IMG/VR virus record: IMGVR_UViG_3300029206_000002
Direction: 5' to 3' (one strand)
Origin: a virus
DNA: 64,000 nt
Every line of letters starts with the position of its first letter. Position 1 is the first letter of the stretch. A program made the position numbers and the translations under genes. Of this stretch, positions 30,444 to 61,959 are shown piece after piece. The notes under the pieces were generated by a model that searched no databases, had not been told where the DNA came from, and saw only the letters and a program-made list of their open reading frames with translations.

Positions 30444-30479
30444 TATACTCTTTTAGTAGTATAGAGAGTGATCAAACTC

Positions 30480-43041: not shown

Positions 43042-43383
43042 ATGAAGAAAGTTTTAATAAGTAATGAATGTTATCCTATTGAATTAGATAACAATTTGAA
43101 TCCAGCACCATTGGGGTCTAACAGCCTTCTTAGAAATGCATATTGTATAAAAGAAGAGAGCGAAGTATATATTAATGGTGAACATAAATATACAGCTAAA
43201 CCTGGAGATATAATAATCAGTTTTTATGGTATTGAAGATAGATACAATAAAACAGAATATTTTTTAGTACCGGGAAAATTATTTGAAGATTACTTTGTAA
43301 GACTAGAAAAATATGAAGCTAGTAAGCAAAGCGAAATTAATAACGAAGGATTATGCTGTGATTGTTGTGAACCCATACGATGA
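43042..43383 (+). CDS. hypothetical protein
   Basis: 113-aa ORF with C-terminal CCDCCEP. Confidence 0.45.
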   Translation: MKKVLISNECYPIELDNNLNPAPLGSNSLLRNAYCIKEESEVYINGEHKYTAKPGDIIISFYGIEDRYNKTEYFLVPGKLFEDYFVRLEKYEASKQSEINNEGLCCDCCEPIR

Positions 43384-43907
43384 AACTATTTGATATAAAC
43401 GGTGGTAAAGTAGTAATACACCCTGATGCTTTAGGTCTCCCGTTCTTTAAAAAGTTGTGGGAGGCTGATAAGCCAGATAAACAACAAGCTACAAATGTAA
43501 TAAGTTATATAGTACTTATGTGGTATTTTAAATCTCCATATGTACTTCAGCTAGAACCAGATATCAGAGAAAAGAAGCTTAAGTAGTTATACTTTGGTGA
43601 TGAGAATTATAATCTTACTGTAGAAGAAAAGTCTTGTGAAGATGATTATAAGAAGCTAATATATACTAGAAATCTAAGAATGCTTGATAGTATGAGAAAC
43701 AAAGTAGATACTATTAGTAAGTATTATGAAGATTCTCTAGAAGAGCAACTAGATGAAAAGAAGATTAAAGATCTATTAGCTGGTATGGAAAAAGTAAAAG
43801 CTACTTTTCAGACACTAGATTTCCTCGAAAAAGCAGTTAAAGCTGAAGAAGTTAGTACTACTAAAGTACGTGGAGATGCTCAGATTAATCCTTATGAATT
43901 AGCTTAA
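43380..43907 (+). CDS. first TAG-containing late gene (176 aa)
   Basis: Track ORFs 43380..43586 and 43680..43907 are in the same frame and joined by a single in-frame TAG at 43584; the gene ends in TAA. Confidence 0.5.
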
Positions 43908-44198: not shown

Positions 44199-44255
44199 TC
44201 TCGTTGAACTGATAGAGAGGTCTGACAGGGACAGACGTTAAATATTCCCTGGCAC

Positions 44256-44330
44256 TCTCCTGTGATGTAAAGGTAACATACTGAGCTCTAACCTCAGAAT
44301 TGTCCGTTCGAGTCGAGACCGGGAGGACCA
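44256..44330 (+). tRNA. amber suppressor tRNA (anticodon CUA, reads UAG); class-I, isotype unresolved
   Basis: Folded by hand: acceptor TCTCCTG/CGGGAGG (U1.G72 and U6.G67 wobbles), U8, D-arm ATGT-aaaGGta-ACAT, anticodon arm CTGAG-cTCTAac-CTCAG, 4-nt variable loop, T-arm GTCCG-TTCGAGT-CGAG(A)AC with a bulged A, discriminator A, CCA encoded. A terminator follows at 44386-44425. Confidence 0.75.
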
Positions 44331-44385
44331 ATTAAAAAAGCTGATTTATGGATAAAGTGTACACAACCAAAATCGCTTATGACTA

Positions 44386-44425
44386 GGGTTACAGAGTACA
44401 AAAAGACGGCTCTGTAACCCTTTTT
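44386..44425 (+). terminator. rho-independent terminator
   Basis: GGGTTACAGAG-13 nt-CTCTGTAACCC followed by TTTTT. Confidence 0.7.
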
Positions 44426-44515: not shown

Positions 44516-45037
44516 GTGTCTAAACTTCAAGCTTACCAAAAATTTGGAGAAAAGGCTTTGAATGAAAATTGTTTTTATGTAGATGGAGATACTACTAATT
44601 GTTCTTTTGATAACATTGAATTAAAAAGTACGTATAAAAATTCTTTAGAATTAAAGAATGTATACAGATGTTCTAAATGTGGTAAAGAACTATCTGAAAA
44701 ATACTTTTATAAAACTGATTTAAAAAACAAAGCTATAAAAAATAGAATATGTATTTGTAAAAATTGCCTTAAAGAAAAAAGAAACAATACTCATGAATAC
44801 ATACAAAGATTTAAAGACAAATGCATATGCTGTGGAGAATCTGATGTAGCATGCTTAGATTTTCATCACTTAAATGATAAGTATGAATCTTTATCTCATA
44901 TGAATTCTCATTCTGCTGATACTATAAATAAAGAAATAAATAAATGCATTATATTGTGTGCTAACTGCCATAGAAAACTACACTACTATAAGTGTAATGT
45001 AGATGAATTAAAAACAAAAATACATGATAGACTTTAA
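44516..45037 (+). CDS. HNH homing-type endonuclease
   Basis: CxxC...DFHHLNDK...N...CANCH zinc-HNH arrangement. No in-frame TAG; the 3' end overlaps the TerL start. Confidence 0.65.
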   Translation: MSKLQAYQKFGEKALNENCFYVDGDTTNCSFDNIELKSTYKNSLELKNVYRCSKCGKELSEKYFYKTDLKNKAIKNRICICKNCLKEKRNNTHEYIQRFKDKCICCGESDVACLDFHHLNDKYESLSHMNSHSADTINKEINKCIILCANCHRKLHYYKCNVDELKTKIHDRL

Positions 45038-47084
45038 TAAAAAAATTAAAAATTCTGATAAATTTAGATAGCCAGCACTAGAATTTATTAAAACTGGAAA
45101 GTACTGTCAATATCCTGCTGGCTGTACTGAATATTACACATACTGGGACGAATAGAAAGATCGTTGCATTAATGGTTATACCGCAGAGGATGGAGATTAC
45201 ATCACTGGGTATAACTATTTTTATATCAATTTCTGTCCAATGCAACGTATAGTTAACACTGTTACTAAACTACCTAACGGAGAAACTAAAGTAAAAAGAG
45301 ATAGTGTAGTAACATTCCCTGATTTCTATGATTATGACTATTTCTACTTCTAGGCAGTACAAGAAGCAGAAGATAAAGGAAAACACATATGTTTACTTAA
45401 ATCACGCCGTAAAGGATATAGTTACAAAGGTGGAGCTATGGCATGTCGTAATTATTATTTGATACCTAATAGCAAAACATATATATATGCTTCTAATAAA
45501 CAGTATCTTACGGAAGATGGTATCCTTACTAAAGCTTGGGACTATATGGACTTTATAGATAAGAATACAGCTTGGGGTAAGAAACGATCTGTTAACAGTA
45601 CTATGCGTAAACGAGCTGGATTCTGGACTAAAGATGAATTTGGCAATGAAGTAGAAATGGGTTATAAATCAGAAATTATTGGCGTTACTTTGAAAGATAA
45701 TCCTGATGTAGTACGTGGTAAACGTGCCAAATTAATTCTATTTGAAGAAGGAGGTTCATTCTCAGAATTAGGTGCTGCGTGGCAAATTGCTAGACCATCT
45801 GTAGAACAAGACGGTGTAGCGTTTGGTACTATGATTGTATGGGGAACTGGTGGTGACGAAGGCTCTGCATTTGAAACTATGAAAGATATGTTCTATAATC
45901 CAGATGGATACAATTGTTTAGGATTTGAGAACATATGGGATAGTACACCTACAGATAAATTGTGTGGATTCTTTGTTCCATAGTATACTAATCTAGATAC
46001 TAGAGATGATGATGGTAATAGAATATACATGGATGATGATGGTAATACTATTACTAAACCTTCCCTTGAATTTATATTAGATGAACGTAGAAAGGTAATA
46101 AGTACAGCTACTAATACTACAGCTATAGACCGTTATGTTGCAGAGCGTCCTATTACTCCACAAGAAGCAATGCTAGAATTTAACGGTAATATATTTCCTA
46201 AGAAAGAATTACAGGAGCAATTAGGACTTATTCGTACTAATACTTAGTTATAGAATCATAAACAAGTAGGTGATTTAATATTTGATGAGTCTGGCAATAT
46301 CAAATGGATACCTAAGAAACATGGTGATGTTACCAAGTACCCACTTGGTAAAGACGATGATCCTACTGGCTCAATAGTTATATGGGAACATCCAGCTAAA
46401 GATGCAACAGCTGGATTATATATAATAGGTGTAGACCCTTATGATCATGACTAGTCTGGTACTAATTCATTAGGATCATCTATAGTATATAAGAGATTTT
46501 AGAACTTTGAAGAGTATTACGATATTATAGTAGCTGAATACACTGGTAGACCTGCAACAGCTGAAGAGTATTATGAGAATTTACGTAAGTTAGCATTATA
46601 CTACAATGCACGTATAATGTATGAAAATGAACGCAAAGGTCTATTCCCTTACTTTACTGCTAAACATTGCGATTACTTATTAGCTGATCAGCCTGATATT
46701 ATTAACGATATAGTTAGTAATTCTAAAGTACAAAGAAGAAAAGGTTGTCATATGAATAAGTAGATAAAACAATGGGGTGAAGGTATGATCAAAGAATGGT
46801 TAAATGAAGAGTATGCTCCAGGTAAGAAAAACCTAACTAGGATACTATCAGAGCCGCTATTAGAAGAGCTAATAAGCTATAATGATACAGGTAACTTTGA
46901 CCGAGTGATGGCGTTGATGTAGGTTATGATATATAGAGAACAACTGTATAATGTAGTTGTTAAAAAGAAAGAAAAAGAAAATAAATAGAAGATGCTCTTT
47001 GATGGACCAATTTTTGCGCAGAGTTGGTTCAATGACGATACTCCTAGAGTATTTTCTAATGACGATAATGTATATACATTTTAA
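45024..47084 (+). CDS. terminase large subunit (TerL), TAG read as sense
   Basis: One frame from ATG 45024 to TAA 47082 with about 9 in-frame TAG. Deviant Walker A LLKSRRKGYS, Walker B KLILFEEGG and coupling motif MIVWGTGGD. Nuclease-domain acidic motifs LYIIGVDPYDHD and IMYENERKG. Confidence 0.7.
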
Positions 47085-47086: not shown

Positions 47087-49612
47087 ATGAAGAATACTAA
47101 AAGTTTCCCTGCACAGAAACTACCAATGTCAAAGAAGACACAAGCCTGGAAAGAAGCCTGCGTAGACTATGTAGTAGGCGCTGGAGATTCAGGATTTGGT
47201 GGTAATGGTAGATCTAGATCTGACGAGATGTAGACTTACTATGATTTATATAATAGCATATATAATGAAAAGGATCTTAAATATGTAACCAATCCGTTTA
47301 AACAAGATGATGGATTTCCTGCTATGGCATAGGATTATAATATCATCAAACCATATGTAGATCAGTTACTTGGTGAAGAAACTAAGAGACCTTTTAATTT
47401 TCATCCACAACGTACAAGTGATATAGCTGCTAGTGAAATGTAGGAAAAGGCTAAAGAAATGTTAATGGATTATATTCAAGCTACTATAGCAAGTAAGTTA
47501 AGCCCAGAACAAGCAGCTAGATATGAACAAGCATTAGCTACAGGAGAAATCTAGACTCCAGAAGCTATAGCTAAGTATCTATAGAAAGATTATAAAGATA
47601 TAGCAGAAACTGAAGCTTATCATGCATTACAATTTCTAAAGAGAAAATTAAATCTTACTCATGAGTTTTATAAAGGTTGGAAAGACGCTTTAATAGGTGG
47701 AGAAGAAATATACTACATAGGTGTAATCAATGGAGATCCTTATGTAGAAAGAGTAAACCCTATGTATTTTGATTATGAGCATTCTTTAGACTTAGAATTC
47801 ATAGATGATGCAGCATGGTGTCGTAGAAAGATGATTATGTCTGCTACTGAGATATACGATAGATTCTATGATAAAATGTCTGAAAGACAACTAAATGAAT
47901 TATTAGAACTTATTGATCAAAGACCTGGAGCAGGTAATAATCCAGAGATAAGAAAGACTAGTATAGATTATGAATCTATTAAGCTACATAAGATTAATAG
48001 TTTTACAGATAATCCATTTGATATAGATCATATAGTAGTATATCATTGCTGTTGGAAATCTTTCAAAAAGATAGGATTTGTTACTTTACTAAACCCAGAA
48101 ACTGGAGAAGCTGAAGAATTTCAAGTAGATGAAGATTATAAAGTAACAGGTACTGAACAATCTGTAGAATGGGATTGGATTATTGAAGTATGGGAAGGAT
48201 ATAGAATCGGTGATGATATGTACATAGGGATCCAGCCTATTGAATATCAACATATATCTGCTGATAATCCTAATTCATAGAAATTACCTTACACTGGTGT
48301 AGTGTATAACAATACTAATAGTAAGCCTAGATCATTAGTAAGTATGATGAAACCATTACAGTATATGTATATTGTAGTATGGTATAGACTTGAATTAGCA
48401 TTATCTAGAGATAAAGGTAAAGTAGCAGTAATGGATATTACTTAGATACCTAAATCTATGAACATTGATGTTAATAAGTGGATGCATTACTTAAGTGCAC
48501 TAGGTGTAGCTTTTATTAATCCTTATGATGAAGGATGGGATATACCAGGACGTGAAGGAGGTAAACCATCTCAATTCAACTAGTTATCCTCTTGGGACTT
48601 AACTATGAGTAATGTAATAGCTGAGTATATTCAATTGATGCAGAAGATTGAAGATATGGTAGCTAAACTTACTGGTATTACTCCACAGAGACAAGGATAG
48701 ATTGCTGCTAGTGAATTAGTAAGTAACGCTAATACTGCTGTTAATATGTCTTATCATATTACTGAACCTTGGTTCTGGAATCATAATTAGGTGAAGAGAA
48801 GAGTATTAACAATGCTATTGAATACTTCTAAAGCAGCTTGGAAAGATAATAAGAGATACTTGAATTATATATTAGATGATGCTACCAGAGCATTTGTACA
48901 ATTATCTGATAATTTCTTCTATGAAGATATGGATATATTTGTAGATGATAGCACTAAGAATCAACAATATATAGATCAATTAAAGCAACTGTTACAACCT
49001 GCTATGTAGAATGGTGCTAGTCTATTAGATATTGCTGAAATCATTACTTTAGATAATATGAGTATAATTAAGAATAGACTTGAGGAAATTGAACAGAAAA
49101 GAATGGAACAAATGCAGCAACAGCAGCAAGCTGAACAACAAGCACAACAGCAAATGGCAGAACAACAGAATCAGCTTAAAGAAGAAGAACTTATGCTTAA
49201 GGAAGCTGAACTGGATCTTGAAAAATATAAAGTAGACCAAGACAGATATAAAGCAGAACAAGATAATGCTACTAAAATTACTGTAGCACAAATTAATTCT
49301 TATCGTGGTGCTGAGAATATGGATCAAGATATGAATGGAATTCCTGATCCAATTGAAATAGGAAAGCAAGCTCTAGAATAGCAGAAGATAAATTCTGATA
49401 TTGCTACTAAACAATTAGAACTTAACAATAAGCGTAGAGAAATAGAGCAGAAGAGAGAAGCTGAAAATAAGAAGATACAGCTTGAAAAAGATAGAATGAA
49501 GCATGAAACTGAATTACAACGTATGTCTGATAAAGCTGCTATGGATAGAGAGAAGCTAAAGGCAAAGACAGCTTTGAGAAATAAAGTAGTAGGCGAATCT
49601 AAATCTAAATAA
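47087..49612 (+). CDS. putative portal protein (~841 aa) with Q-rich coiled-coil C-terminus, TAG read as sense
   Basis: Single frame from ATG 47087 to TAA 49610, interrupted only by TAG. Position immediately after TerL and size fit a crAss-like portal. Confidence 0.5.
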
Positions 49613-49614
49613 CT

Positions 49615-50064
49615 ATGAACTGGTTTAAAGAAACATGGTGGTTAGTAAAACAATTATTTACTACTACTAAGAATAAAGATAAAGTATAGTATAAACATAT
49701 GGATCATTATCCTTTTAGTGGATACTCTGCCATGAGTTGGTGCGGGTATATTTTAACTAAAAAGAAAGAATCTAATATTAAAACTACTACTTGGAATCAC
49801 GAAAATATACATTTACAGTAGGCTAAGAATAAGGGTAGTTGGTTAAAGTATTATGCTGATTATGTATGGGAGTGGATCAAAGGCAATCCTATTACTTACC
49901 CAGCATCTTCTGCATACTATACAATACCTTATGAAATGGAAGCATACGCAAATGAAGATAAATCTGATTACGAAATTAATACGGATAAGTATAAAATAAA
50001 AAATCGTAAAAAGATCTATAGAGAGAATAAGAAAAATTGGTTTAACTATATTAAAAATTTATAA
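49615..50064 (+). CDS. hypothetical late protein (149 aa), TAG read as sense
   Basis: In-frame TAG at 2 positions; ends in TAA. Confidence 0.45.
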
Positions 50065-50131
50065 TTATGGCATGTGGTGGAAAGAAAAGTGGCAAGAAGT
50101 CATCTAAAAGTGGAAAGAAAAATAAATAACT

Positions 50132-51604
50132 ATGGAACGTGAAGCATTTAGATAGAGAATGCAACAGTATAAGTAGGCTAGGGAGAATAATCCCTAGCTG
50201 AAGTACTGGGATTGGAAAAAAGAAAATGATTTAGGCTACTAGCTATATAAAAATAATCTTCCAAGTAATCTACAAGTAGAAACAGATGATTATGATTTAT
50301 ATGGAGCTTATGAATCTAATATGCAGCCTGAACTAAATGAAGATGGTACTTATCATTTAGGTAGTAGAGATCCTTACACTGGTAGAATTCTAAAAAGTAA
50401 ATAGCATCCGACATATTAGAAGGCAATAGAATCTGAAATATCTGCTGGTTATTTTCCATATGAAAAGAATAATATTACATATACTAAAACTTATTCTCCT
50501 GTTGATATAAGCGGATATGCAGATGGTGGCATTATAGATGAAGATCCACCATAGAGTACTAGTGAAAGACCTATTACTAACTTTGACCCTAAAGGAGATC
50601 CATATAATCCTACATATGGATATAACCCAGGTGCAGGTTATGTTTCAAATTCAGATCCATTAGGTAGTTTATATGTAGAAGGAGCTTTACTTAATCCAGT
50701 ATTTAAATTAGCAGGTAATGCAGTATCTAATGTAGCTAGAGGATTAACTAAATACTCTTCTAAATATGTACCAGAAGTAAGAAGAACTGTGTAGGATAAA
50801 ATAAATAGTTTGTTCCGTAGAGAAGCTGAAGATAAAGCTCGTACATATAAATTATATGATGATGCTATAGAATCTAGAAATAGAATAATTGAAGATCTAT
50901 ATTCTAATCCAGCTTATATGGAAAGAGCTAGATAGATTTAGAATACATATGGCGATGATTACGCTAAAGTATATGAAGATATAATTAATTAGTATAATAC
51001 TAATTATTGGAATTTACCTAATCCTGTTATAAAACAGTTAGACGCTAAGGCTAAAATGTAGGCTAAAGATGCAGCTGTAAATAGGTATATTACTAGAAGA
51101 CAGCCAGCAGGATATGATGATTTTGAGTATTAGATAAATAGAAATCTTACAGAGATAGATTATCCTACTACTAGACACGAACTAGGACACTATGTAGATT
51201 TTAATTTAGCCAAAAGTTCAAATCCTGATTATAGCAACTCTATGTTTGCAGAGTTAAAAAGAGATTTATCAAAATAGAAGAATCCATTATTTCCAGATAA
51301 AACTGATTATTATAGTAAAGGTACAGAATAGAAGTCTTATATGAATACTCTTAGAGAGTATATGTTTAAGAATGGTATGATTAATAATATAGGAGATAAG
51401 GTAACTTCTAGATAGATTAAGAAAGCTATAAGATCATTACCTAAAGATATGAGATCTATTGAAGCTGCTTATCTTCAATTTGCTACACCTGGATAGTATA
51501 CAAAATGGTTTAACAAGATACCTTTACTTGGTACTTATCCAATAGTAAATAAACAATTTTAGAATTATGAAGAAGATAAAGATAAAGCCAGAGAATAGAG
51601 GTAA
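50132..51604 (+). CDS. late structural protein (~490 aa) with very high TAG density (19 in-frame TAG)
   Basis: Read codon by codon from ATG 50132 to TAA 51602; the only interruptions are TAG. Confidence 0.5.
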
Positions 51605-51761
51605 GTTCAATGCAACTAAAAAGAAAACAGGAAAGACAACCGAAGAACTAACTCACAGTAAGAATCCTGTAACAAGAAAGAGAGCAATATTCGCTTAGAA
51701 TGCTGCTAAATGGAATAAAGGTAAAAAGAAGAAAAAATAAATCTAATTAAATATTTTAATT

Positions 51762-52940
51762 ATGGATAAAAAAATGACATTAGGTGGATTTGAAGCTGTA
51801 CTAGATAGCTTTATCCCTAATCCAGATGGTGGTTTTAGAAATTCAAATATTGATGAAAACGTTAATGTCAATGCTGATGAATTTGAATCACTAGACGATG
51901 AAGAATTGGAAGATATTAAAAAGAACAATATCGAAGTAAAGAATAATAAAGAAAATCCAGTAGAGGAAGATACTGAGGAAGAAGAAATCGAAGAAGAAGA
52001 TATTGAAGATAAACCAAAACGTAAGCCTGGTAGACCTCGTAAAGAAGAAACTATTGAGGAAGAAACAGAAGAGGAAGAAGAGGTTGAAGATAATAATGAA
52101 GAAAACGTTGTTACTAACTTCTTTGATGCTATGGCTGAAAAACTCAATTGGGAATTTGAAGAAGGTGAAGACAAACCCAAGAATGTAGATGAGTTAATTA
52201 ATTACTTCCAAAATGTCATTGAAGAAAATAGTAAGCCTGAATACTCTAGTGAAGAAGTTGAAGCACTAGATAATTTCGTAAAACAAGGTGGAGATTTAAA
52301 GAAGTATTTGACTATTGATGCTGAATTAGATTTAGATGATATTGACATTGAAGATGAAACTAATCAGAAATTGGTAGTAAAACAACTACTTAAAGAGAAG
52401 GGATTCTCTACTAAGAAGATTGATAAGTTAGTAAGTAGATACGAAGAAGCTGGATTACTTGAAGATGAAGCACAAGACGCTTTAGAAGATCTTAAAGAGA
52501 TTAAAGAGGAAAAGAAGAAACAGCTATTAGAGGATCAGAAAAAGGCTTATCAGATATAGTTGCAGAGACAACAGCAATTCTACGATAACGTTGTTAGCGA
52601 AATAAAAGGCTTAAAGAATATACGTGGTATTACAGTCCCTGAAAAAGATAAAAAGGTTTTAATGGATTATATACTTAAGCCAGACACAGACGGTAAAACA
52701 AAGTACCAAAAGGACTATGCTAAGGGTGGTGTTAAGAATCTGATAGAATCAGCATACTTTACAATGAATGCTGACAAACTTATTGAGGCTGCTAAACGTG
52801 AAGGAAATAATTCAGCTATTGATAAGTTTAGACGAAGTTTAAAATCTAGTAGTATTACTACTAAATCTAGAAAACAAGCTACGGGTTCTGATGATGATCC
52901 AATTTGGTTCTCAGCTGCACGACAACTGCGTATATCATAA
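51762..52940 (+). CDS. acidic E-rich protein (393 aa), possible scaffold, one in-frame TAG
   Basis: Track ORFs 51762..52559 and 52560..52940 are in the same frame and joined by TAG at 52557. Lies immediately upstream of the putative MCP. Confidence 0.45.
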
Positions 52941-52982
52941 TAATTAATTATATAAATAAAAAAATTAAATTACTAGTATTTT

Positions 52983-54449
52983 ATGGATAATAATATTCTT
53001 AATAACCTCCAATTATACAAAGGTAAATGGTTTTCTGATTTGATCGACACTAATAAGATTAGTCTCGCTTCTCAGCAAAGACCTTATGAGGTATCTACTA
53101 TCCTGTCATACGTATTTGGTACTAAAGATAATGGTTACAGTACTTCTCTTGATATGTTGACAGGTGGTCTTGGAAATGTAATGACTATTGATCAGCCTTC
53201 ATTTGAATGGGGTGTTATGATCGACCAAGATAGAGCTGTTACAATTCGTGACGCTAAATGGAATGGTGCTGCAATTAATGAAAATTCTACTCCAGGTTTG
53301 GGTAATACACCTATCACTTTGTGGTTGGAAGATGCATGGTTTGGTCCTGGTGCTACTATCGAATTTGATGATAAGAGTCAAGCACGTATTCAGGACGCTC
53401 CGTATCAAGATGGCAATCTGTATGTTTATACAGTATTTGTATCTAATGGTAGTCCCGCTTCTTATATTGACCCGGCTGTTTTAGCTTCTGGTTGCCAAGT
53501 AAACCGTTTGGCTTCTGCTTATGAAGAATACAGTGAAGAGGCTGATATCCTGAATTACAATACTCACTTCAAGATGCGTAACTATTTGACTACAGTACGT
53601 CTGTCTTATGATATCACAGGTTCTGCTTACTCTACAGTTATGGCAGTAGCTTTGAAAGATCCTAAGACTGGTAAAACTTCTTACTTGTGGTCTACATTCC
53701 AGGAATGGGTTGCAATGCGTGAGTGGTACAAACGTCTTGAAAGAGCTTTGGTATACAATCAGAACAACGTAAACAAAGATGGTTCTTGTAATCTGAAAGG
53801 TAAAAATGGTCGTCCTGCATTTATTGGTGCTGGTTTGTTGGAACAGATTGCTCCATCTAACAGACGTTACTACACTCGTTTGACAGCTGAATTGTTGGAA
53901 GACTTCTTGTTTGACCTGTCTTACAATGTATTGGGTACTAATGAACGTAAGTTCGTTGCCTTGACTGGTGAAATGGGTATGCGTGAATTTGACCGTGTAC
54001 TTAAAGAAAAGATGGCTAACATGAACTTGATTGACACAGTATTCGTAACTGGTTCTGGTGATAATTTGAAGTTTGGTGGTCAGTTTAAGACTTACGCAAT
54101 GTCTAATGGTATTGAATTGACTTTGAAGTATTTCCCGTTGTATGACAATACTACTTACAATCGTCAGTTGCATCCTGTTACTTTGAAACCGTTGGAGTCT
54201 TACCGTATGACATTCTTGGATTTGGGTCGTCGTGATGGTGAAGCTAACATTGTTAAAGTAGTTCGTAAAGATCGTGAATTCGTTAACTGGTGTACAGCTG
54301 GTTCTGTAACTCCTGCTGGTTACGCTCACTCTAACACAGAAGTTCGTTCTAACGCTAAGGATGGTTACTCAGTACACTTCTTGGGTGAAGTAGGTATTAT
54401 GTTACGTGATCCTAGGGCATGTGGAGAATTGATCATGATGGCTGAGTAA
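52983..54449 (+). CDS. putative major capsid protein (488 aa), TAG-free
   Basis: Largest TAG-free ORF in the late block, with higher GC and a hairpin at 54466-54493 after it. Size and position fit a crAss-like MCP. No motif confirmation was possible. Confidence 0.5.
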   Translation: MDNNILNNLQLYKGKWFSDLIDTNKISLASQQRPYEVSTILSYVFGTKDNGYSTSLDMLTGGLGNVMTIDQPSFEWGVMIDQDRAVTIRDAKWNGAAINENSTPGLGNTPITLWLEDAWFGPGATIEFDDKSQARIQDAPYQDGNLYVYTVFVSNGSPASYIDPAVLASGCQVNRLASAYEEYSEEADILNYNTHFKMRNYLTTVRLSYDITGSAYSTVMAVALKDPKTGKTSYLWSTFQEWVAMREWYKRLERALVYNQNNVNKDGSCNLKGKNGRPAFIGAGLLEQIAPSNRRYYTRLTAELLEDFLFDLSYNVLGTNERKFVALTGEMGMREFDRVLKEKMANMNLIDTVFVTGSGDNLKFGGQFKTYAMSNGIELTLKYFPLYDNTTYNRQLHPVTLKPLESYRMTFLDLGRRDGEANIVKVVRKDREFVNWCTAGSVTPAGYAHSNTEVRSNAKDGYSVHFLGEVGIMLRDPRACGELIMMAE

Positions 54450-54525
54450 TTCAGTTAAAAAATATTAGGGGCTTGAATGCTAGCGAGCCCCTATAATACT
54501 AACTTGATAATCTAATTTTATAATT

Positions 54526-55278
54526 ATGGAAGTAATCGTTAGAATGACAAAAGTAAATCCTTGGACAGGATTGATTAAATGGTCTAACTGCTTTGATTTT
54601 ATTAGTTCTTACTGGACTAGATCTGGTAGTAGATACACTGGTTTAAAAGCAGACAAAGCTAGAGAACTAGAACAGAAAATGGGTAAAGCTGAAGGAGAAT
54701 TAGATCCTGATAGCACATTTTGGGATACATTTGCAATTAAGATTGGTAAGAAAGAATTAGTAATTAATACTGATAGACCTGAAGGAGAATTGCAATATTT
54801 ATTCCTATTAGGACATAAGAGAGTAGCAAATGGCATTGATAAAGTAACTCCATCTACTGATTATGTACTTATAAATAAAGAAGCTGAAGCAGAACAAATT
54901 AATAAAGCTAACAAAGTTAAACGTGATGCTTATAGAGCATTAGATAAGATGAGTCTTGAAGATATGCGCAAATGTCTTAGACTTCTTGGAATTAAAGCTG
55001 ACACTATGTCTAATGAATTGGTTGAAGCTAGACTTGGTGAAAACGTAGAAGCTGATCCAGCAAGATTTATTAGAATTTGGGTAGATAATCCTAATAAAGA
55101 AATTAACTTTGTAATTGAAGAAGCTTTAAGTAAAAATATTATTCGTAAGAACAGAGCATCATATTACTTTGGTACTGATCTTATTGGTAACGGTCTTGAA
55201 GATGTAATTGCATATTTGAAAGACAAAAAGAATCAAGATATTTACTTAAGTATTATGTCTGAAATAAAATCTAAATAA
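54526..55278 (+). CDS. late structural protein (250 aa), TAG-free
   Basis: Intact ORF directly after the MCP. Confidence 0.5.
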   Translation: MEVIVRMTKVNPWTGLIKWSNCFDFISSYWTRSGSRYTGLKADKARELEQKMGKAEGELDPDSTFWDTFAIKIGKKELVINTDRPEGELQYLFLLGHKRVANGIDKVTPSTDYVLINKEAEAEQINKANKVKRDAYRALDKMSLEDMRKCLRLLGIKADTMSNELVEARLGENVEADPARFIRIWVDNPNKEINFVIEEALSKNIIRKNRASYYFGTDLIGNGLEDVIAYLKDKKNQDIYLSIMSEIKSK

Positions 55279-55955
55279 TGACTAGAGAACAATTTCACTC
55301 ATATTTTAAAGTAGCAATGGACAAGAACTCTCAAAGCGTAGCCTTTGGGGGTTGTCCTGCTTTCTTACCAGAAGAAATAGATTACTGGTTAGATCAAGGT
55401 TTATACCAAGAAATCAGTAATAAGTTTACTGGTAATAACTACTTAAAGACTAGCTTTGAAGGATCTGTAAAACGTATTCACGATTTAGAAAAATTAGTAC
55501 GTACAGATGTTAACGTTGTTGCTAATACTGAAACAAATTCAAATAGATGTTATGTTACTAACTTATTCAATGGTGACAGAATGTTCTTTGTAGATGCAGT
55601 GTTAAACTTCAATAGTAACAAAGCTACTATAAAATTAATAGATCATTCTGACGCTACTAAGTTCAAGAAGACTTACAATAACAATCCTTGGATAGAAGAT
55701 CCAGTAGCTGTAATAGAAGATAATACTCTATATATCTATTATGATTACTTAGCTATGAGTAGTAATAGCTATTCTGTAGATATTACCTATGTTAAGTTTC
55801 CTACTAAGATAGAAGACTTACCAGCTGAAGGTATGAGTGAAATACCAGAGTATATGTAGTTTGAAGTAATTAACAGAGCTGTAGAACTAGCATTAGAAGA
55901 TATTGAGTCTAAGAGAATATAGACTAAATCACAGTTAAACCAAATAGATGAATGA
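55278..55955 (+). CDS. late structural protein (225 aa), TAG read as sense
   Basis: Track ORF 55278..55859 continues through 2 TAG to TGA 55953-55955. Confidence 0.5.
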
Positions 55956-55957
55956 TT

Positions 55958-56692
55958 ATGACAAATCGTGGATTTCAAATCGAGTTTGAACGTAGGCTAT
56001 AGTTAATGGATCCTAATTTAGTTATTAAGGATAAGCTATCCTCAGACACTATTATATCATTCATTAATGAGGCAATTGATAAATTTTATAAAACAAGATA
56101 CTCAGGTATTAACTTTAAAGCTCAAGGATTTGAGTAGACAGAAAAGCGTATAGATGATTTGCGTACTTTAGTTCGTAAAAAGAACTATTCTAACACTTAG
56201 ATAATTAAAGGAGTTAGAAACTCATACTCAGTAGAATTACCAGATGATTATGTATTATTACTTGGAGATACTGCTGGTATACAGCCGAGTGATGAATATC
56301 CTAACGAATGCTGGGAAAAAGACGATTTAGGTGCATATATAGTTAAGTATACAGATACGTTAGAATCTACGATTGAAACATTAGATAGACAATTAAGTAA
56401 TTCACTATCTGAACACAAATTAAAATATTGTCAAGCTAGACCTTTAAAGTTAATTCAAGATAATAATGTAATATTATACACAGACGGTAAATATAAAGTA
56501 AGTGAATATGAGATTACATACTTAGCTAAGCCATCTAAAATTAATTCAAGTAATATTACTAATACCGAATATACAGATTTGCCAGAACATACACATATGG
56601 AAATTGTGAAAATGGCAATCTAGATTTATCTTGCTACTAAACCAATGTAGCACTATAATGCTTATTCCAACGAAATTGCTTCAATGGAATAA
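55958..56692 (+). CDS. late structural protein (244 aa), TAG read as sense
   Basis: ATG 55958 to TAA 56690 with 5 in-frame TAG. Confidence 0.5.
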
Positions 56693-56798
56693 CAAATAAA
56701 TTAATGCGTTTGTCTGACCTGGAAATCTGAAATAAGGAAAGTAGAAGGACAAACTAGACTAGCGCTAAGTCTAACAATTAATTATTTTTATATAAACT

Positions 56799-57779
56799 AT
56801 GATTACACGCGTTGATACCGTATTAATCGGAAAGAAATGCCCTACAGCCTATACTACTGTAGATGCTTTGGCTAAAGGGGACGTTGCTTTATTTGACTAG
56901 AATAAAGCACTAATTACAACTGCTGCTAATGCAGTAAATGCATCTACTGTTTATGTAGGTGTAGCTGGGGATAATATGACAATTACTCTGCCCAACGGTA
57001 CTACTGCAACAAAGAGAATGGTAGAATACTCTAACGCCATTCAAAAAGCTTCTAAACCTTCGTATGTACAAGGTGATTATGTTGCACCAGTTCAAGAGAA
57101 AATCGAAATTGATTTAACTAGTGCTACTGTTGTTATCGGTCACAGATATGTTTTACGCATTGTTTATAAAGACTTATATGAAGCTCCAGGACAGTTTACT
57201 CATACTTATGAAGTAATTGCTTCAACTGAGACTGCTGATGATTTGGGAAATGCACTTTTAGCTAAAATTAACAAACACGCTAATCGTAGAGTAAGTGCTA
57301 CATTTGCAAGTCATAAGTTAACTTTAACTGCAATGGAAAAAGATGACAATGAAGGAGTCAATTCTTTGAATGAATACTCTGTAGTTTCTATGGAAGCTTC
57401 TCTGTACGTTACTATTCCTGGTGCATTATTGTCTAATGTTCCTGAAGCAGTTCCTGGTGCAACTATTACTAAGACTGCTGGTAAACCTGGTAAAGGTTAC
57501 TGGAAACAGGTACGTGATATGGAAGTACGTATGTTGGGTTATAAGGGTCATGTATTCACAGATGCGTATCCTGCAATTGAACCAAAACGCAATGTTGAAG
57601 AAGGTTCTACATACGATTACTTTACTATTGAAAATGATAATCTGTATTTGAGTCCTGATAATCAGTATATTAAGACTACTCCGTTGACTACAGAAGTATA
57701 TATTGAACACAATGCTACTAATAAAACTTCTGTATTCGCTAAGGCTCTTGAGGCATTTATTACAGGTGAAGCAGAATAA
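56799..57779 (+). CDS. abundant late structural protein (326 aa), one in-frame TAG
   Basis: ATG 56799, TAG at 56898, then continuous with track ORF 56976..57779. Higher GC, and a strong terminator follows. Confidence 0.5.
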
Positions 57780-57803
57780 TACACGGTTTCTTTATTTAAA
57801 CCC

Positions 57804-57845
57804 AGGCGAGGTTGAGGTTTATCCTCGGCTTCGCCTTTTTAATTT
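57804..57845 (+). terminator. strong rho-independent terminator
   Basis: AGGCGAGGTTGAGG-tttat-CCTCGGCTTCGCCT followed by TTTTT. Confidence 0.75.
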
Positions 57846-57854
57846 TTTGTAGAT

Positions 57855-58388
57855 ATGAAAATAATTAATGCAACATTAAAGAACGATACTATAACTATAA
57901 CTTTAGATGCTAAGGCTAATGTACATAAGATTTATCTAGATTCAATAATAAATCAAAAGAATATGTATTCTGATGAAGATGATAAACACACTCATGTAAT
58001 ATCTGACTTTGTTGCTTAGGATAATACTGTTATTGTTGATATTACTGAGTATAATGAAACTTCTTTTATAGTAAGCGTTCTTACATCAGAGGGTAATAGA
58101 GATGAAGCTATAGCAATAGATCAGAATGAATTATATTTAGCTAAAGTAAATCTACTTACTACATATTGTAATACATGTTTAGATAAACATTAGAAGCATA
58201 TAATAATGATGTGTGATTTTAGATCATAGTTATTGTAGTATGCTTTAGAGCACAATCTTACTAAAGACGCTATTGAACATTACATAGATCTTAGTAGAAT
58301 GTTAGGTATGATAGATTATCATAATTGTAGTAAGTGCCTATCTCCTAATAAAGTGTGTAAATGTTGTAATGGTATGTGTGCGCTATGA
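57855..58388 (+). CDS. late protein (177 aa) with C-terminal Cys cluster, TAG read as sense
   Basis: 4 in-frame TAG; ...CSKCLSPNKVCKCCNGMCAL; ends in TGA, which overlaps the next ATG. Confidence 0.45.
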
Positions 58389-58924
58389 TAAAAGAAGAAT
58401 ATAAAAATGGATGCAGATTGAAAGAATAGGTAAAGTATAACATTGATTATGATGATTGCCAAATTCTTAATCTAACCTGTGCTAATTACATATATGATTT
58501 AGTATAGGAATCTTCTAAATATGAAACAAAATTAGAAGACATTAAAAAGATGTTATATATGATAGAAAAGTTATTAGGACACGAAGTACAATATGATATT
58601 CCAGAATATCATGGAGATAATAAAAAATGTTATTTTGGTGTAGTATCAGATAATTTTGTTATTAATGAAGATAATATAAAACAATTAGATTATGTACTAC
58701 AAGATACAAAAGAATTTGTTAAAAGCTTTAGTACTGATTATCAAAAGATATTATATTGTTATCCTAATGAATTTGGAGATATAAATAGCATAAAAGATCA
58801 AAATCAATTTGAGATAAAAGAGTCATTTTAGAGGAATGCTGTAACTATAGATGGTATATTATATAATGTATATATACTGAAAGACGCATCCACAGTAGAT
58901 AATTATAAAATATATTTTATATGA
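58385..58924 (+). CDS. late protein (179 aa), TAG read as sense
   Basis: ATGA overlaps at both ends; 3 in-frame TAG. Confidence 0.45.
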
Positions 58925-61900
58925 TACAGGTAGCTGATAATTTTAACTATAGAGGAAAAAAGCCTAACTTTGATAGAGATAGTTTTGATACATTGTAGGA
59001 TATGAAGAACTATTCTGAAAATAGTTTAGATGATGGTCATATATCTTATTGTAAAGAAACTGATAAACATTATAAGTTTAATTCTAATAATCAGTCAGAT
59101 CCTACTACTGGTAAATGGGTAGAATAGCACGAAGCTGTTCCAGCTGATGAAGAAGATATAACTGAACAAAATGGCACTCTATAGTTAGCAAATAAAACTT
59201 ATGATAAACAGTCTTTCAGTGGTTTGGGTAGAGTATATCTAAGAAAGAATATAGTAGGTGATAAGAATGTTCTTACTTAGGCTATGATCAATAAAGCTAA
59301 TACTATATATGTTATTCAGTATGATTATGATTTAAAAGAAGCTAGTATAAATATTCCGGAAAATTGTGTTTTATAGTTTGATGGTGGAAGTTTGAGTAAT
59401 GGTACAATTGTAGGTAATAATACTAAGATTAAAACTGAATTAGAAAAGATATTTAACAATATAACTATAGACGGAGATTGGAACGTAGTTGAAGCACACC
59501 CAGAATGGTTTGGAGCACTACCAGATGGAATATATGATTGCACAGATGCTATATAGAAAACTATTAATAGTTTTGATGTTACTAAGCTAAATAACGGAGT
59601 TTATTTTATAAATGGTACTATTCAGTTAAGGAGTCATGTAGTTATATTTGGAGAAAAAGGTAAAACTACTATAAAATCTCCAGTAACTAAAGAATTTGAT
59701 GTAAATGATTTACCAGATGCAAATACTCTTCCCTACGTTTTTTATTCTGAGAAAGCTGTAAAAGTTTTATTTAAAGGCATTTCTTTTATGCTTGGCGATT
59801 ATTACAACGGTATAGGTTTTAAACAGACCGTTAACGGTAATACAGATGAATGGGATGCTAAAATATACATAGATAATTGTCATTTTGAGCATGGGTATAG
59901 AGCTGTAAGTATTGAAAGGACCTATAGAGAATGTAGAATAATAGATTCTATTTCATATTACGCATGTGGTGACTATGCTTTTTTTATGGAAGGAACCGAT
60001 AATTCTATTCATAACAGTACGGTTGGGAGTTGTCAACAAGGAGGTATTTATTTATCTCAAAATTCAAGAATATCTAATTGTAAAGTTTTTATTGCTAATA
60101 AAGCTTGGAGATATAAATATGATGATGTTACTCCTAGAAGTAAATACGCAGTTTATATAAGTGGTAGTTATTGTAATGTAACAGGTCTAGATATATAGCA
60201 AAATTGTGCTAATGGTATTTATATAGAAGGGCATGATAACTATGTTCAAGCTATTTTAAACGCTAATGGGTATTAGAGAGATAAACAGTCGTCAGTATTA
60301 TGTGCAAATGCTGTTTTAAAATGTAGTAATAGCATACTATTATTCACTTCAACTACAGGTTTTTTAAATAGTTATGTATCGCACTATTTATATTCTATTG
60401 GGAATCCAGCTTATGCAGTTAAAGGTAATTATATAAATATAAATACTCACGATGAACCTGGTGAAAATACACCTTATGTATTAAGTAACTTTTCAGCCTT
60501 TAATAGTATAATATTTAATGGAGTAAATATAACTAAAAATCATAATTTACCAGATGATTTCGTTAAAAATAATATTCATTCTGATAATGTATCTAAAGGA
60601 GAAAGAATGTATGTTACAGTTAATTCTGGTAAAACTGTTTCTTTTGATTTAGACGTTACAACTTTTATTACACAATATACTGTTGTACATCAATATCTAA
60701 CTTTTATGATTAATCCATCATTAGCAATAGTAGACACTCCTTTATATGAAGTAGGTAAATACAAATTGATAATAACTATTAATGATGTAGATTATATTTT
60801 AAAATCAGATATATTTTAGAATGGATTAGTATCAATAGAATCTATTAAATATTTATATGATATAATACCAGATCCAAAAGATTCGCAATGTAAGTTAAGG
60901 TATGAATTAACAAATACTAGTGATTCAGCTGTAAATATAGCAATTGATTATCCTATAATCGAGATATACAAAAACAATACTGGCTATGGTAGTAGTTATA
61001 AAACTAATATTATTCCAACTGATTTAAGTAAAGATTTTTGTAAGGACAACAAGGGTATTTATGGAAAAGTAGGGAATAACACATATGACATTAACTTAGG
61101 AATTGTTAGATTTAATAATGCTGCTTCTGATTCTTCAGAATCTTATGAATATATCAAAATAACTAAAATTCCTACAAGTGGTTTTACTTTTTTATATTCA
61201 ACATATAACATATTAAGTAAGTATTCTCTGTTATATTTAGATAATAAATTGTATATATTATCTGATGTATATGATACTGGCAATGATTCTTTTCTGAATA
61301 TAAAATATTTATTTGATTCTATATCTTATACATTAGATATTTATATTAAAGTTCCAACAAAATATGGAAAATTAATAGTTAGAGATACTAAATGGGCTAA
61401 TCTTAATACTTATTAGTGGTATTCTAAAAATACAGATCCATATCCATCAGAAGCCGTTGATGCTGAATTTATTTCTTCTAATGTACTTACTTTACCAAAT
61501 ACTTTAATTGGTACAAAAACATATGATAAATTTGGCAATGAATTAACTTGGTCTAAATCCGATTGGCTAAATCCAGACGGGTCTCTAGTTACAAAAGTTA
61601 TTTTTGCAAGCAAATTAAATGATTTTACTAAAAATAACACTATATATAATATTGTTAGATATATAGATTTAAAAGGAGAAACTCTTACTATTCCTGAAAA
61701 CAGTGTACTTAATTTTATCGGAGGCGCCATTGGAAATGGAACTATAATTGGAAATAAAACTAAAGTCATAAATCTAAATGTTGATAGAATTATTTTATCA
61801 GGTACTTGGTTTGATTCAGGAATTACTTCTAATAGACCTACTAACGTTTTAGTAGGATTTCAATACTTTGATACTACTGTAAACAAACCAATTTTTTGGG

Positions 61901-61941
61901 ATGGATCTAAATGGGTAGATGCTACAGGAGCTACTGTATAA
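58921..61941 (+). CDS. tail fibre/tailspike-like protein (~1006 aa) with beta-helix-type repeats, TAG read as sense
   Basis: Single frame from ATG 58921 to TAA 61939 with about 12 in-frame TAG. Repeated NGTIVGNNTKI and GGAIGNGTIIGNKTKV motifs typical of right-handed beta-helix (pectate-lyase-like) tailspikes. Confidence 0.5.
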
Positions 61942-61959
61942 CAATAAAATAATTAAGAT

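Follow-up and report, generated by a model that had tools for sequence, protein, structure and literature searches.

A probable glutamine-charged amber-suppressor tRNA in an exchangeable slot ahead of the terminase gene of a Suoliviridae crAss-like phage

[quoted passage not shown] These phages share with the locus described here a phage-encoded tRNA(CUA), early genes in the standard code and TAG-rich late genes, and in both cases TAG corresponds to Gln and the host is presumed to do the charging (PMC7886860; 10.1101/2021.08.26.457843; PMC9523058). The assignment of TAG to Gln has been made by metaproteomics in crAss-like phages, one member of the Suoliviridae included (PMC9523058; PMC10136315), and a late-gene regulation model has been put forward (Yutin 2021, PMC7886860; Borges 2021, 10.1101/2021.08.26.457843). 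The suppressor function itself, with UAG read as Gln in late genes, is thus already established for crAss-like phages. The code-15 studies, in their accessible text, score genomes for presence or absence of the suppressor, with detection in only ~40% of those that are TAG-recoded. Compared with those descriptions, as far as that text goes, the lineage examined here differs in having a fixed suppressor slot that holds mostly non-canonical alleles, which are replaced among near-identical genomes.

The DNA analysed (hereafter the window) is a stretch of 64,000 nucleotides from IMG/VR record IMGVR_UViG_3300029206_000002, and its genome is that of a Suoliviridae crAss-like phage with 95.8% DNA identity to cr6_1 (NC_055894.1, Afonbuvirus faecalis). 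TerL and portal are syntenic between the two, and the window TerL DNA is 95.7% identical to that of cr6_1. The window covers 64 kb of a ~97-kb genome, which is one weak point of the analysis; the marginal Rfam score of the tRNA is another. The locus has the features of the TAG-recoded (code 15) crAss-like suppressor class, namely a cloverleaf with a CUA anticodon, TAG codons in late genes, TAG columns aligned with Gln and affiliation with the Crassvirales.

Structure and family of the tRNA

The amber-suppressor tRNA(CUA), an allele that we term 'type D', occupies 44256..44330 on the + strand and is identified by ARAGORN, Rfam and covariation. ARAGORN makes a single call, a 75-nt tRNA with anticodon CTA over exactly this span, and Rfam RF00005 matches 44257-44325 at 33.1 bits, narrowly above the gathering score of 29. 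The first-pass annotation had proposed a 75-nt class-I tRNA(CUA) at the same place on the + strand, and had named a minus-strand fold as the competing reading; ARAGORN finds no tRNA on the minus strand of 44256-44330. The structural details given at that time, i.e. the wobbles, A73 with CCA, the loops and the bulged A, all hold on re-reading of the sequence. The acceptor stem (UCUCCUG/CGGGAGG) contains U1.G72 and U6.G67 wobbles and is followed by discriminator A73 and an encoded CCA; the D-loop is AAAGGUA, the anticodon loop CUCUAAC (U33, C34 U35 A36, A37), the variable loop AAUU (4 nt) and the T-loop UUCGAGU, on a T-stem of GUCCG/CG[A]GAC. The Rfam alignment independently treats the extra A as inserted into the 3' half of the T-stem (UCGaGAC), between tRNA positions 62 and 63. 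The window copy of type D is thus a class I cloverleaf that combines U1.G72, C2-G71 and A73 with a variable loop of 4 nt and a single bulged A. It is not a canonical RF00005 class I tRNA, as the T-stem is interrupted and its 33.1 bits are not comfortably above threshold, the cr6_1 allele reaching 54.5 and the window's own tRNA-Ile 52.8.

ARAGORN labels the gene tRNA-Pyl because any CUA anticodon gets that label. We take the hallmarks of tRNA-Pyl to be a 3-nt variable loop, a 6-bp anticodon stem and a small D-loop lacking G18G19, together with the lack of a T-psi-C consensus and the presence of pylS/pylBCD genes alongside. The label was rejected given the 4-nt variable loop, 5-bp anticodon stem, GG in the D-loop and UUCGAGU T-loop, and it also lacks gene support, with no Pyl genes annotated in the near-identical cr6_1.

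The minimum free energy fold of the lone tRNA sequence is not the cloverleaf (z = 0.23), and thermodynamics alone gives no support for the call; as this fold was uninformative, covariation was relied on instead. A blastn search of GenBank phages with the cassette 44256-45040 gave no match, and relatives were therefore drawn from IMG/VR and metagenomes, where the type D family was found in 46 contig stretches, in lineages covering about 70-100% TerL identity. Among 14 distinct members of the family, taken from viral and metagenome contigs, standard pairs occupy 294 of 294 cells and compensatory double changes occur at 11 of the 21 pairs, with all four stems covarying. None of 500 shuffles matched this covariation, slid controls were 34-52% paired, and the tRNA call is beyond chance. 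U1 and A73 are kept in every recovered member, the 1-72 pair is U.G in 13/14, and C2-G71 is found in the window and in 13/14 members. The bulged T-stem A recurs in all 14, under a search pattern that fixed the T-arm and its bulge. Position 6-67 varies (U.G in the window, U-A in some other members and, once, C-G), and the encoded CCA is not conserved, CUA being ~2x commoner than CCA in other type D copies; U6.G67 and the encoded CCA are window-specific rather than features of the family.

The code boundary and the amino acid at UAG

The tRNA stands where the code of the genome changes, as first suggested by its reading as an amber suppressor heading a recoded block, a reading with which both the restoration of open reading frames and the TAG census agree. 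Readthrough of TAG restores long ORFs in the + strand block at 44.3-64 kb and 1-5.5 kb. The 15 genes of this late block contain 97 in-frame TAG and 215 CAA/CAG, with TAG making up ~31% of Gln-equivalent codons; the nine + strand genes directly upstream of the tRNA hold one TAG between them, and the real - strand genes ~0. The tRNA had been placed between the first TAG-containing gene and the HNH and TerL genes, both of which do lie downstream. The single upstream TAG (43584-43586) falls in a 175-codon gene (43380..43907, +), annotated as one CDS in cr6_1. Among 67 relatives this codon is CAG in 26, TAG in 26, AAG in nine and CAA in two, and the TAG is a sense codon. TerL (45024..47084, +; assigned by its translation and identity to cr6_1) is the first heavily recoded gene, with 11 in-frame TAG, and the rest of the recoded late block, comprising portal, head and virion genes according to ORF maps, the TAG census and the cr6_1 annotation, extends over 47087..64000 and continues at 1-5458 (+). 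No second CUA tRNA candidate was found in the 64-kb window, even at a relaxed threshold, and cr6_1 annotates one tRNA only, in the same slot. The cr6_1 annotation contains no aminoacyl-tRNA synthetase, release factor or amidotransferase, and a phage-encoded charging enzyme or release factor was rejected on this basis.

The first-pass annotation expected Gln by analogy but left the residue open among Gln, Trp, Glu and Lys; the expectation stands, and the openness gives way to codon evidence strongly in favour of Gln. When TAG sites were followed through the TerL and portal alignments, as had been suggested, TAG in conserved columns aligned with Q only (e.g. in columns of 34, 64 and 51 sequences). 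Of the 52 window TAG sites that are informative, 22 have Q as the majority residue other than TAG, the next residue reaching five, and a BLOSUM62 ranking of TAG partners also puts Q first. Between genomes in pairs at least 93% identical, TAG-to-codon events involved CAG 64 times and CAA 41 times, together 105 of 142 events, with E (10), W (6) and K (4) as other partners; the partner was CAG or CAA in 20/24 events when both genomes carried type D, and in 49/59 for pairs including the window. The alignment of gene 50126-51604 was gappy (788 columns for 492 residues), and the conclusions therefore rest on TerL, portal and the close-pair comparisons. Because tRNA alleles among close relatives are replaced faster than codons change, the TAG-to-Gln evidence reflects the history of the whole allele pool, and cannot be attributed strictly to type D. 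On these comparisons, Gln appears as the best-supported amino acid at UAG.

A73 had been regarded as atypical for bacterial tRNA-Gln, which is refuted for the relevant hosts: sampled Bacteroidales tRNA-Gln genes have A73 in 42/42, U1-A72 in 40/42 and G2-C71 in 41/42, in a layout with U8-G9, a 7-nt D-loop AAUGGUA and a 4-nt variable loop. The window tRNA shares with chromosomal Bacteroidales tRNA-Gln(UUG/CUG) U1, A73, U8-G9, U11-A24, G12-C23, a 7-nt D-loop AA(A/U)GGUA, the 4-nt variable loop and overall length. These host tRNAs have U1-A72, G2-C71, G37 and G10-C25, and their 5-bp T-stem is regular; in the phage tRNA the corresponding features are U1.G72, C2-G71, A36-A37 and a T-stem interrupted by a bulged A, with A10-U25 in the window copy; a weak 1-72 pair is kept (G72 in the window, A72 in Bacteroidales), whereas the host G2-C71 is absent. 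Given these departures in the acceptor and D-stem, efficient recognition by glutaminyl-tRNA synthetase (GlnRS) is assumed. The window D-arm UGAUGUAAAGGUAACAU departs from the Bacteroidales tRNA-Gln motif UGGUGUAAUGGUAGCAC at 4/17 positions, and two members of the type D family (L068 and L087), with D-arms 1-2 bases from UGGUGUAAUGGUAGCAC, link it to that motif. This motif, from which the L068 D-arm is one base off, is that of allele types A and E and, with the anticodon left free, belongs to tRNA-Gln in 111/120 bacterial tRNAs, in a sample that was chosen by its Gln-like D-arm and is not an unbiased isotype classifier. Assignment of isotype by pairwise identity to bacterial tRNAs was rejected as non-discriminating in this motif-selected sample, which was kept for feature comparison only.

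In E. coli supE (glnV/glnX amber), the CUA anticodon differs from the CUG of tRNA-Gln at position 36, and GlnRS, which reads C34/U35 together with a weak 1-72 pair, mischarges tRNAs with CUA anticodons. The supE suppressor arose by point mutation from a cellular tRNA-Gln and has G73, G2-C71, G3-C70 and G10, all absent from the window tRNA. The same mode of recognition of CUA by GlnRS is also the rationale given for phage suppressors in Borges 2021.

It is improbable that the tRNA is a functional amber suppressor that inserts a residue other than Gln, of which Lys or Glu would be the most plausible. A73 with U35 fits the rules of E. coli LysRS, and C2-G71, U.G72 and A10 differ from the acceptor and D-stem pattern of Bacteroidales tRNA-Gln. 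Many tRNAs given a CUA anticodon are reportedly charged with Lys or Gln in E. coli, as Normanly and colleagues are said to have found in 1990. E and K do rank second and third among TAG partners in divergent columns, but in close pairs they account for only 10 and 4 events against 105 of 142 for Q (20/24 in type D pairs), and TAG coincides with the invariant Q columns of TerL and portal. A non-Gln residue at >100 sites in essential proteins would moreover be strongly counter-selected, yet type D is found in lineages covering about 70-100% TerL identity.

Alleles, flanks and neighbours of the suppressor slot

In cr6_1, the tRNA-Gln(CUA) KNV52_gt01 lies in the same slot as the window tRNA, behind the same leader and on the same side of TerL. 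Both have the CUCUAAC loop, U1 and A73, and presumably the same function; unlike the window tRNA, KNV52_gt01 has U1-A72, G2-C71, G3-C70, a regular T-arm and an unrelated body. The amber suppressor recognised in the first-pass annotation therefore stands, but its status as an allele, which was not visible from one genome, is revealed by the different tRNA(CUA) of cr6_1. At least eight tRNA(CUA) body types occur in this one slot between the same conserved flanks, and types differ even among genomes with TerL 99.4-100% identical. They share little beyond U1, A73, a U.G or U-A 1-72 pair (with one exception) and the CUCUAA anticodon loop. Different types average 62% pairwise identity; the window tRNA has 56% identity to unrelated bacterial tRNAs. 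Most are non-canonical, with bulged or mismatched T-stems, T-loops of 6 nt or without the T-psi-C consensus, or a D-loop without GG, and one allele has a long arm. When scored with Rfam, one allele was canonical, two reached 32-36 bits and three fell below threshold, of which one was called by ARAGORN at a relaxed setting only.

Upstream of the tRNA, comparison with cr6_1 defines a conserved 5' leader (44199..44255, +) containing a small hairpin, GTCTGACAGGGACAGAC, at 44220-44236. The leader has 1 mismatch in 57 nt to that of cr6_1, up to the first tRNA base. Among backbone-similar genomes with different tRNA types it is 98.5% identical (TerL 5' end, 89.5%), and it is nearly unchanged in a lineage with 78% TerL identity; it forms the left boundary of the exchangeable segment, and may serve as a promoter or a processing signal. 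Downstream, folding identifies a terminator-like hairpin with a 13-bp stem, an 11-nt loop and a U-run (44385..44425, +). The hairpin proper (44385-44421) starts 55 nt past the tRNA, as originally noted, and its fold is strong (z = -5.3 vs shuffles). A consensus terminator scan missed it, presumably because the 11-nt loop exceeds the 3-8 nt limit of the scan. A hairpin this strong, placed behind the tRNA and ahead of the late genes, makes the transcription unit ambiguous. It accompanies the same HNH module next to types D, C and A but is missing where a slot lacks the module, and so belongs to the HNH module and not to the tRNA allele.

The ORF at 44516..45037 (+; 173 aa, GTG start, no in-frame TAG) is a predicted free-standing HNH homing endonuclease, matching the PHROG HNH endonuclease phrog_2255 (E = 7.5e-23) and no Pfam family at 0.01, and its end overlaps the start of TerL. 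Close relatives keep this HNH ORF in the slot, lack it or have a different endonuclease ORF in its place, with cr6_1 carrying a GIY-YIG/NUMOD1 endonuclease instead; slots lacking the HNH include the 93-nt and 108-nt alleles. Type D is seen with three other downstream contexts, or none, besides the HNH module. Movement of tRNA and endonuclease as one cassette was rejected as the sole model, since one HNH module occurs beside all of types A, C and D. The tRNA body appears to be exchanged among co-circulating phages without regard to the backbone and, to some extent, to the homing endonuclease beside it.

In phages, free-standing homing endonuclease genes are found beside tRNA genes, where they drive local gene conversion, SegB of the T4 tRNA cluster being an example. 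Within crAss-like phages, PolA and PolB are swapped in situ, and replacement of essential genes has been attributed to defence pressure (PMC10136315). Unlike in either system, the unit exchanged at the window slot is a single 72-nt tRNA body, with flanks conserved to its very ends, and the same HNH module is found with three tRNA types. Our search of the literature, of incomplete coverage, found no earlier report of suppressor allele swapping.

Proposed mechanism and implications

It is very probable that the window tRNA is a functional phage amber suppressor charged with Gln, and one allele (type D) of an exchanged suppressor slot. For its expression, processing, charging enzyme and timing, we infer the following course. 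Transcription of the tRNA would take place at the end of the + strand middle-gene cluster, directly ahead of the late module, and host enzymes would mature it, with RNase P cutting at U1; the window copy encodes its CCA, and most other copies, with CUA, would need CCA addition. Charging with Gln would fall to the GlnRS of the host (Bacteroidales), for which C34-U35, the weak U1.G72 terminal pair and A73 are likely recognition elements. The charged tRNA would decode UAG in competition with release factor 1, so that ~100 or more in-frame TAG of terminase, portal, capsid and tail genes could be read as Gln, and late proteins would be possible only once the suppressor tRNA is present. More speculatively, and with some doubt on our part, the suppressor may be the vulnerable point of a recoded phage, as a single RNA that gates all late expression, with diversifying or balancing selection acting on its body and driven by escape from cleaving or sequestering factors. 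Such factors, of host or rival-phage origin, would recognise a particular suppressor tRNA, and exchange would come from repair of double-strand breaks triggered by the adjacent homing endonucleases.

A main role in host interference, either by UAG readthrough of defence proteins or as decoy or replacement against tRNA-targeting nucleases, with recoding as a secondary matter, seems most unlikely. Recoding as anti-defence was proposed by Yutin 2021 (PMC7886860), Zeta crAss-like phages retain CUA suppressors without TAG recoding (PMC12386605), phage tRNAs counter tRNA-cleaving defences (PMC10264068, PMC11464382, PMC11555353), and the fast turnover of alleles resembles an arms race; however, with TAG at ~31% of the Gln-equivalent codons in 15 late genes, decoding is indispensable regardless, and the window itself contains no identified host target. 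A decaying or non-functional tRNA-like remnant, with suppression supplied by another tRNA of the genome or host, is scarcely credible despite an Rfam score barely above threshold, an irregular T-stem and 33 kb of genome outside the window, as full pairing with 11 compensatory pairs in 14 variants is incompatible with decay, the bulge recurs in 14/14 recovered members (though the search pattern required it), cr6_1 has a single tRNA in the same slot, the window has no further CUA candidate and Bacteroidales hosts use the standard code (Borges 2021).

What is new here, judging from genome comparisons, is that near-identical phages carry, in the identical slot, at least eight tRNA(CUA) bodies that are not related to one another. 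This bears on the 'missing suppressor' problem, in which a 2026 preprint again describes a reassigned Crassvirales phage without a CUA tRNA. In the lineage studied here, the suppressor consistently occupies a single slot upstream of TerL. If the speculative reading of a suppressor body under selection is true, the 'missing' suppressors of many TAG-recoded phages would be present, but too non-canonical for tRNAscan or ARAGORN at default settings. An essential component of translation is exchanged like a cassette among near-clonal phages, making selection on suppressor identity testable, be it through defence evasion, matching of GlnRS to host range or endonuclease drive. The allele series represents a natural library of diverse amber suppressors, presumably all working with Bacteroidales GlnRS, which could serve both to define the identity rules of GlnRS and to develop genetic-code tools in gut Bacteroidota.

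The suppressor tRNA and the code boundary

ARAGORN returned two tRNAs in the window, one of them at 44256-44330 (+) with anticodon CTA, exactly where the first-pass annotation had folded an amber suppressor by hand; its label 'Pyl' is one that the program gives to any CUA tRNA. The general tRNA model of Rfam matched 44257-44325 at 33.1 bits (gathering score 29). Read from the sequence as UCUCCUG-UG-AUGU-AAAGGUA-ACAU-A-CUGAG-CUCUAAC-CUCAG-AAUU-GUCCG-UUCGAGU-CG[A]GAC-CGGGAGG-A-CCA, the tRNA carries the features that had been described for it: U1.G72 and U6.G67 wobbles, GG in the D-loop (AAAGGUA), U33, C34 U35 A36 and A37 in the anticodon loop, a short variable loop (AAUU), A73 followed by an encoded CCA, and a bulged A in the T-stem, placed by the Rfam alignment as an insertion in the 3' strand. 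The hairpin 55 nt 3' of the tRNA, annotated as a terminator, is also real (44385-44421; 13 bp, then a U-run) and very stable (z = -5.3).

Folded alone, the tRNA gives no cloverleaf (z = 0.23), and the case therefore rests on comparative evidence. A pattern search that prescribed nothing but the CUA loop and the odd T-arm found this tRNA's family in 16 IMG/VR and 21 metagenome stretches, as 14 distinct 72-nt sequences in 46 occurrences. On a cloverleaf with the bulged A, these 14 sequences form standard pairs in 294/294 cells, with both-side changes in 11 of the 21 pairs (44 cells); none of 500 shuffles reached the observed pairing or compensation values, and pairing fell to 34-52% in a control with the 3' partners slid. 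Compensatory changes are located in the acceptor, D and anticodon stems and in T-stem pair 50-64, the invariance of the T-arm being partly ascertainment because the pattern searched for already set the rest of that arm. All 14 members have U1, U11-A24, the bulged A and A73, and 13 have U1.G72 and C2-G71. The window's U6.G67 is unconserved, the pair being U-A or C-G in other members, as is its CCA: CUA follows A73 about twice as frequently across family copies, so that most copies need post-transcriptional CCA addition.

The window derives from a crAss-like phage; across the 5 kb compared, it matches cr6_1 (NC_055894.1, Afonbuvirus faecalis, Suoliviridae) at 95.8% identity. When TAG is treated as a sense codon, long ORFs reappear specifically in the + strand block, which runs from 44.3 kb to the end of the window and also covers 1-5.5 kb. 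There are 97 in-frame TAG against 215 CAA/CAG in 15 late genes, a single TAG in total in the nine + strand genes directly upstream of the tRNA, and essentially none in genuine - strand genes, which places the tRNA at the code boundary. This single upstream TAG, at 43584, is a sense codon, relatives having CAG or CAA (28/67) or TAG (26/67). As annotated, the tRNA precedes the HNH and TerL genes, both on the + strand: a 173-aa HNH endonuclease ORF (PHROG E = 7.5e-23) without in-frame TAG, then TerL, which starts at 45024 and has 11. Relaxing the ARAGORN threshold revealed no second CUA candidate in the window, and no synthetase, amidotransferase or release factor is annotated in the cr6_1 record. 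The annotated amber suppressor is real and was correctly interpreted.

Other elements were observed outside this locus. The ORF-poor 28-39 kb stretch holds four structured RNAs on the - strand, all above Rfam gathering thresholds: RAGATH-7-assoc (30326-30453; 139.6 bits), RAGATH-9 (31612-31757; 122.6 bits), a Hatchet ribozyme (32892-33016; 102.2 bits) and RAGATH-14 (35989-36219; 168.9 bits). RAGATH-7 and Hatchet are also present in relatives, and the set points to an early region rich in non-coding RNA. A canonical tRNA-Ile(GAU) at 29762-29836 (-; Rfam 52.8 bits) is unannotated in the cr6_1 RefSeq record, which lists the suppressor only. That record annotates a reverse transcriptase (gp25, 'intron reverse transcriptase') at 94135-95163, adjoining lysis genes.

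Glutamine as the probable inserted residue

Codon-level alignments of ten late genes from 80 TerL-anchored IMG/VR loci gave 226 well-occupied TAG-containing columns, with Gln in 146, Glu in 74 and Lys in 57. At conserved positions the TAG-to-Q signal is pure: non-TAG sequences have Q in 34/34 cases at TerL column 360, in all 64 at portal column 410 and in all 51 at portal column 654. The inserted amino acid had been left open between Gln, Trp, Glu and Lys, and codon evidence now strongly favours Gln: in pairs of sequences with an identity of at least 93%, which align unambiguously, CAG (64) or CAA (41) accounts for 105 of the 142 distinct TAG-to-codon differences, followed by Glu (10) and Trp (6). 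This share is 20/24 for pairs in which each genome has the tRNA type of the window and 49/59 for pairs including the window, and BLOSUM62 scoring of TAG sites also ranked Q first. Mutational proximity fails to explain the pattern, because many of the exchanges are TAG/CAA, requiring two substitutions each. Metaproteomics has also shown that TAG is read as Gln in crAss-like phages, a Suoliviridae member among them (PMC9523058; PMC10136315). The gene at 50126-51604 has the highest TAG density among the window's large late genes (19/27 Gln-equivalent codons, 70%), and its alignment to relatives is very gappy.

The D-arm motif of two other suppressor alleles, types A and E, was scanned in one genome per bacterial species with the anticodon unconstrained; the D-arm of the relative locus L068 is one base off this motif. 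Among the 120 loci found, 111 motif-bearing tRNAs were tRNA-Gln. A73, previously considered atypical for bacterial tRNA-Gln, is the norm in the host order, being present in 42/42 motif-selected Bacteroidales genes, which have U1-A72 in 40/42 and share G2-C71, U8-G9, a 7-nt D-loop (AAUGGUA) and a 4-nt variable loop. The window tRNA appears to have this tRNA-Gln layout, but differs in G at position 72, C-G at 2-71, A-U at 10-25 (G-C in several relatives), A rather than G at position 37, and the T-stem bulge. In E. coli, the CUA-anticodon tRNA of supE is accepted by GlnRS. Charging of the window tRNA by host GlnRS may reasonably be inferred, and is consistent with the known susceptibility of GlnRS to CUA anticodons (Borges 2021, 10.1101/2021.08.26.457843).

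A polymorphic suppressor slot

Homology between the window and cr6_1 ends precisely at 44256 and picks up again at 45024, where TerL starts; between these boundaries cr6_1 has a different tRNA(CUA), annotated as tRNA-Gln, and a GIY-YIG/NUMOD1 endonuclease. Window 44256-45040 had no blastn match among 50,697 GenBank phage records. Across TerL-anchored loci this slot holds 77 tRNA(CUA) genes in nine clusters at 80% identity, including type A (30 loci), type B (20, and cr6_1), type C (8), the window's type D, to whose family the L068 singleton belongs by its T-arm, types E and F, and two singletons, one being the 91-nt long-arm tRNA of L064. A further type, G, detected only at the relaxed ARAGORN setting -ps90, lies about 0.85-1.2 kb upstream of TerL in L066, L080 and L082. 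U1 and A73 are common to all tabulated representative alleles (a set without the L064 long-arm allele and type G), with U.G or U-A at 1-72 except in L070 and an anticodon loop of CUCUAA(C/A) except in L073 (UUCUAGC).

Among 37 genomes with TerL proteins at least 95% identical, pairs of different tRNA type were 98.5% identical over the 98 nt upstream and 89.5% over the first 300 nt of TerL, and 62% in the tRNA body; the window tRNA is 56% identical to unrelated bacterial tRNAs. The window and L035 (both type D), L004 (C) and L007 (A) have a common leader up to ...CCCUGGCA and a common downstream sequence from A73, including the hairpin and HNH gene (86-97% identity); only the tRNA body differs. 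Four suppressor types occupy the slot within the sublineage L064-L068, where TerL is 99.4-100% nt-identical, and the loci nearest to the window by TerL (97.1-97.6%) have type C. Slots are between 93 nt (tRNA alone) and about 2 kb long, with at least six different endonuclease ORFs across loci. Endonuclease and tRNA type are partly linked: type B is in every case followed by an endonuclease-type ORF (of 309, 272/273 or 213 aa; in cr6_1 the 309-aa ORF is GIY-YIG), and the HNH module is found with types A, C and D.

Several features accompany the slot. The 57-nt leader at 44199-44255, including the hairpin GTCTGACAGGGACAGAC at 44220-44236, is 98.5% conserved against 89.5% for adjacent TerL coding sequence and almost constant in a lineage whose TerL identity is only 78%; it may act as a promoter or as a processing signal. 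The L064 tRNA (9131-9221; C1-G72, A73) is of class II, as are Leu, Ser and Tyr tRNAs; if it functions, it might add an amino acid other than Gln. At the nucleotide level, the TerL of L064 is 100% identical to the TerL of L068, a locus with a type-D-family tRNA. Type G lacks GG in its D-loop and has T-loop AGCAGAA; its acceptor stem (UCUCCUG/CGGGAGG) and A73 are those of the window tRNA, and its T-stem has one change from U.G to U-A. An extra 103-nt tRNA-like element between leader and suppressor in L068 (9139-9241; Rfam 34.9 bits, 32-nt insertion in the anticodon region), with a homologous stretch in L066, could be an intron-containing or degenerate tRNA. A canonical tRNA-Met(CAU) (60-68 bits) lies directly upstream of TerL, 3' of suppressor and endonuclease, in L064-L068 (9912-9985), the lineage with 78% TerL identity, and also occurs in L074 and L076. 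About ten relatives (L053-L059, L061, L062) have a ~1 kb TerL insertion at about window 45419 (TerL codon ~132), holding a 346-aa ORF in most carriers; their TerL homology begins at residue 133, and that of L060 matches full-length. The insertion agrees with the intein/intron described for TerL of the Delta group (PMC10136315).

Allele turnover and suppressor detection

The best explanation, which we consider highly probable, is a functional amber suppressor that a host enzyme would charge with Gln and that would gate translation of the late genes. Variability of the tRNA body has three candidate causes: diversifying or balancing selection, for example through evasion of defences aimed at tRNAs, of which other phages offer well-documented cases (PMC10264068, PMC11464382, PMC11555353); gene conversion that neighbouring homing endonucleases would drive; or matching to the GlnRS of different hosts. 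Allele boundaries are sharp at the mature tRNA ends, irregular T-arms recur among alleles, and U1.G72 is near-universal where hosts have U1-A72.

Suppressor tRNAs are already known as a kind, of which the window's is a structurally unusual member. No prior description of suppressor allele exchange was found in the searchable literature, whose coverage is incomplete, and the population-level behaviour of the slot is, as far as can be told, new. Rfam RF00005 scores type B at 54.5 bits, type A at 35.1 and the D family at 32.3-35.9, and leaves types C and G and the L064 long-arm allele unreported at its 29-bit threshold. Yutin et al. applied a 35-bit tRNAscan cut-off and noted that some recoded genomes had no detectable suppressor (PMC7886860), Borges et al. 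detected one in about 40% of the genomes with TAG recoding (10.1101/2021.08.26.457843), and a 2026 preprint describes a Crassvirales genome with reassigned amber codons that lacks a CUA tRNA but has two 'pseudo' tRNAs of low score (10.64898/2026.08.21.746148). The allele series shows how such failures of suppressor detection can arise.
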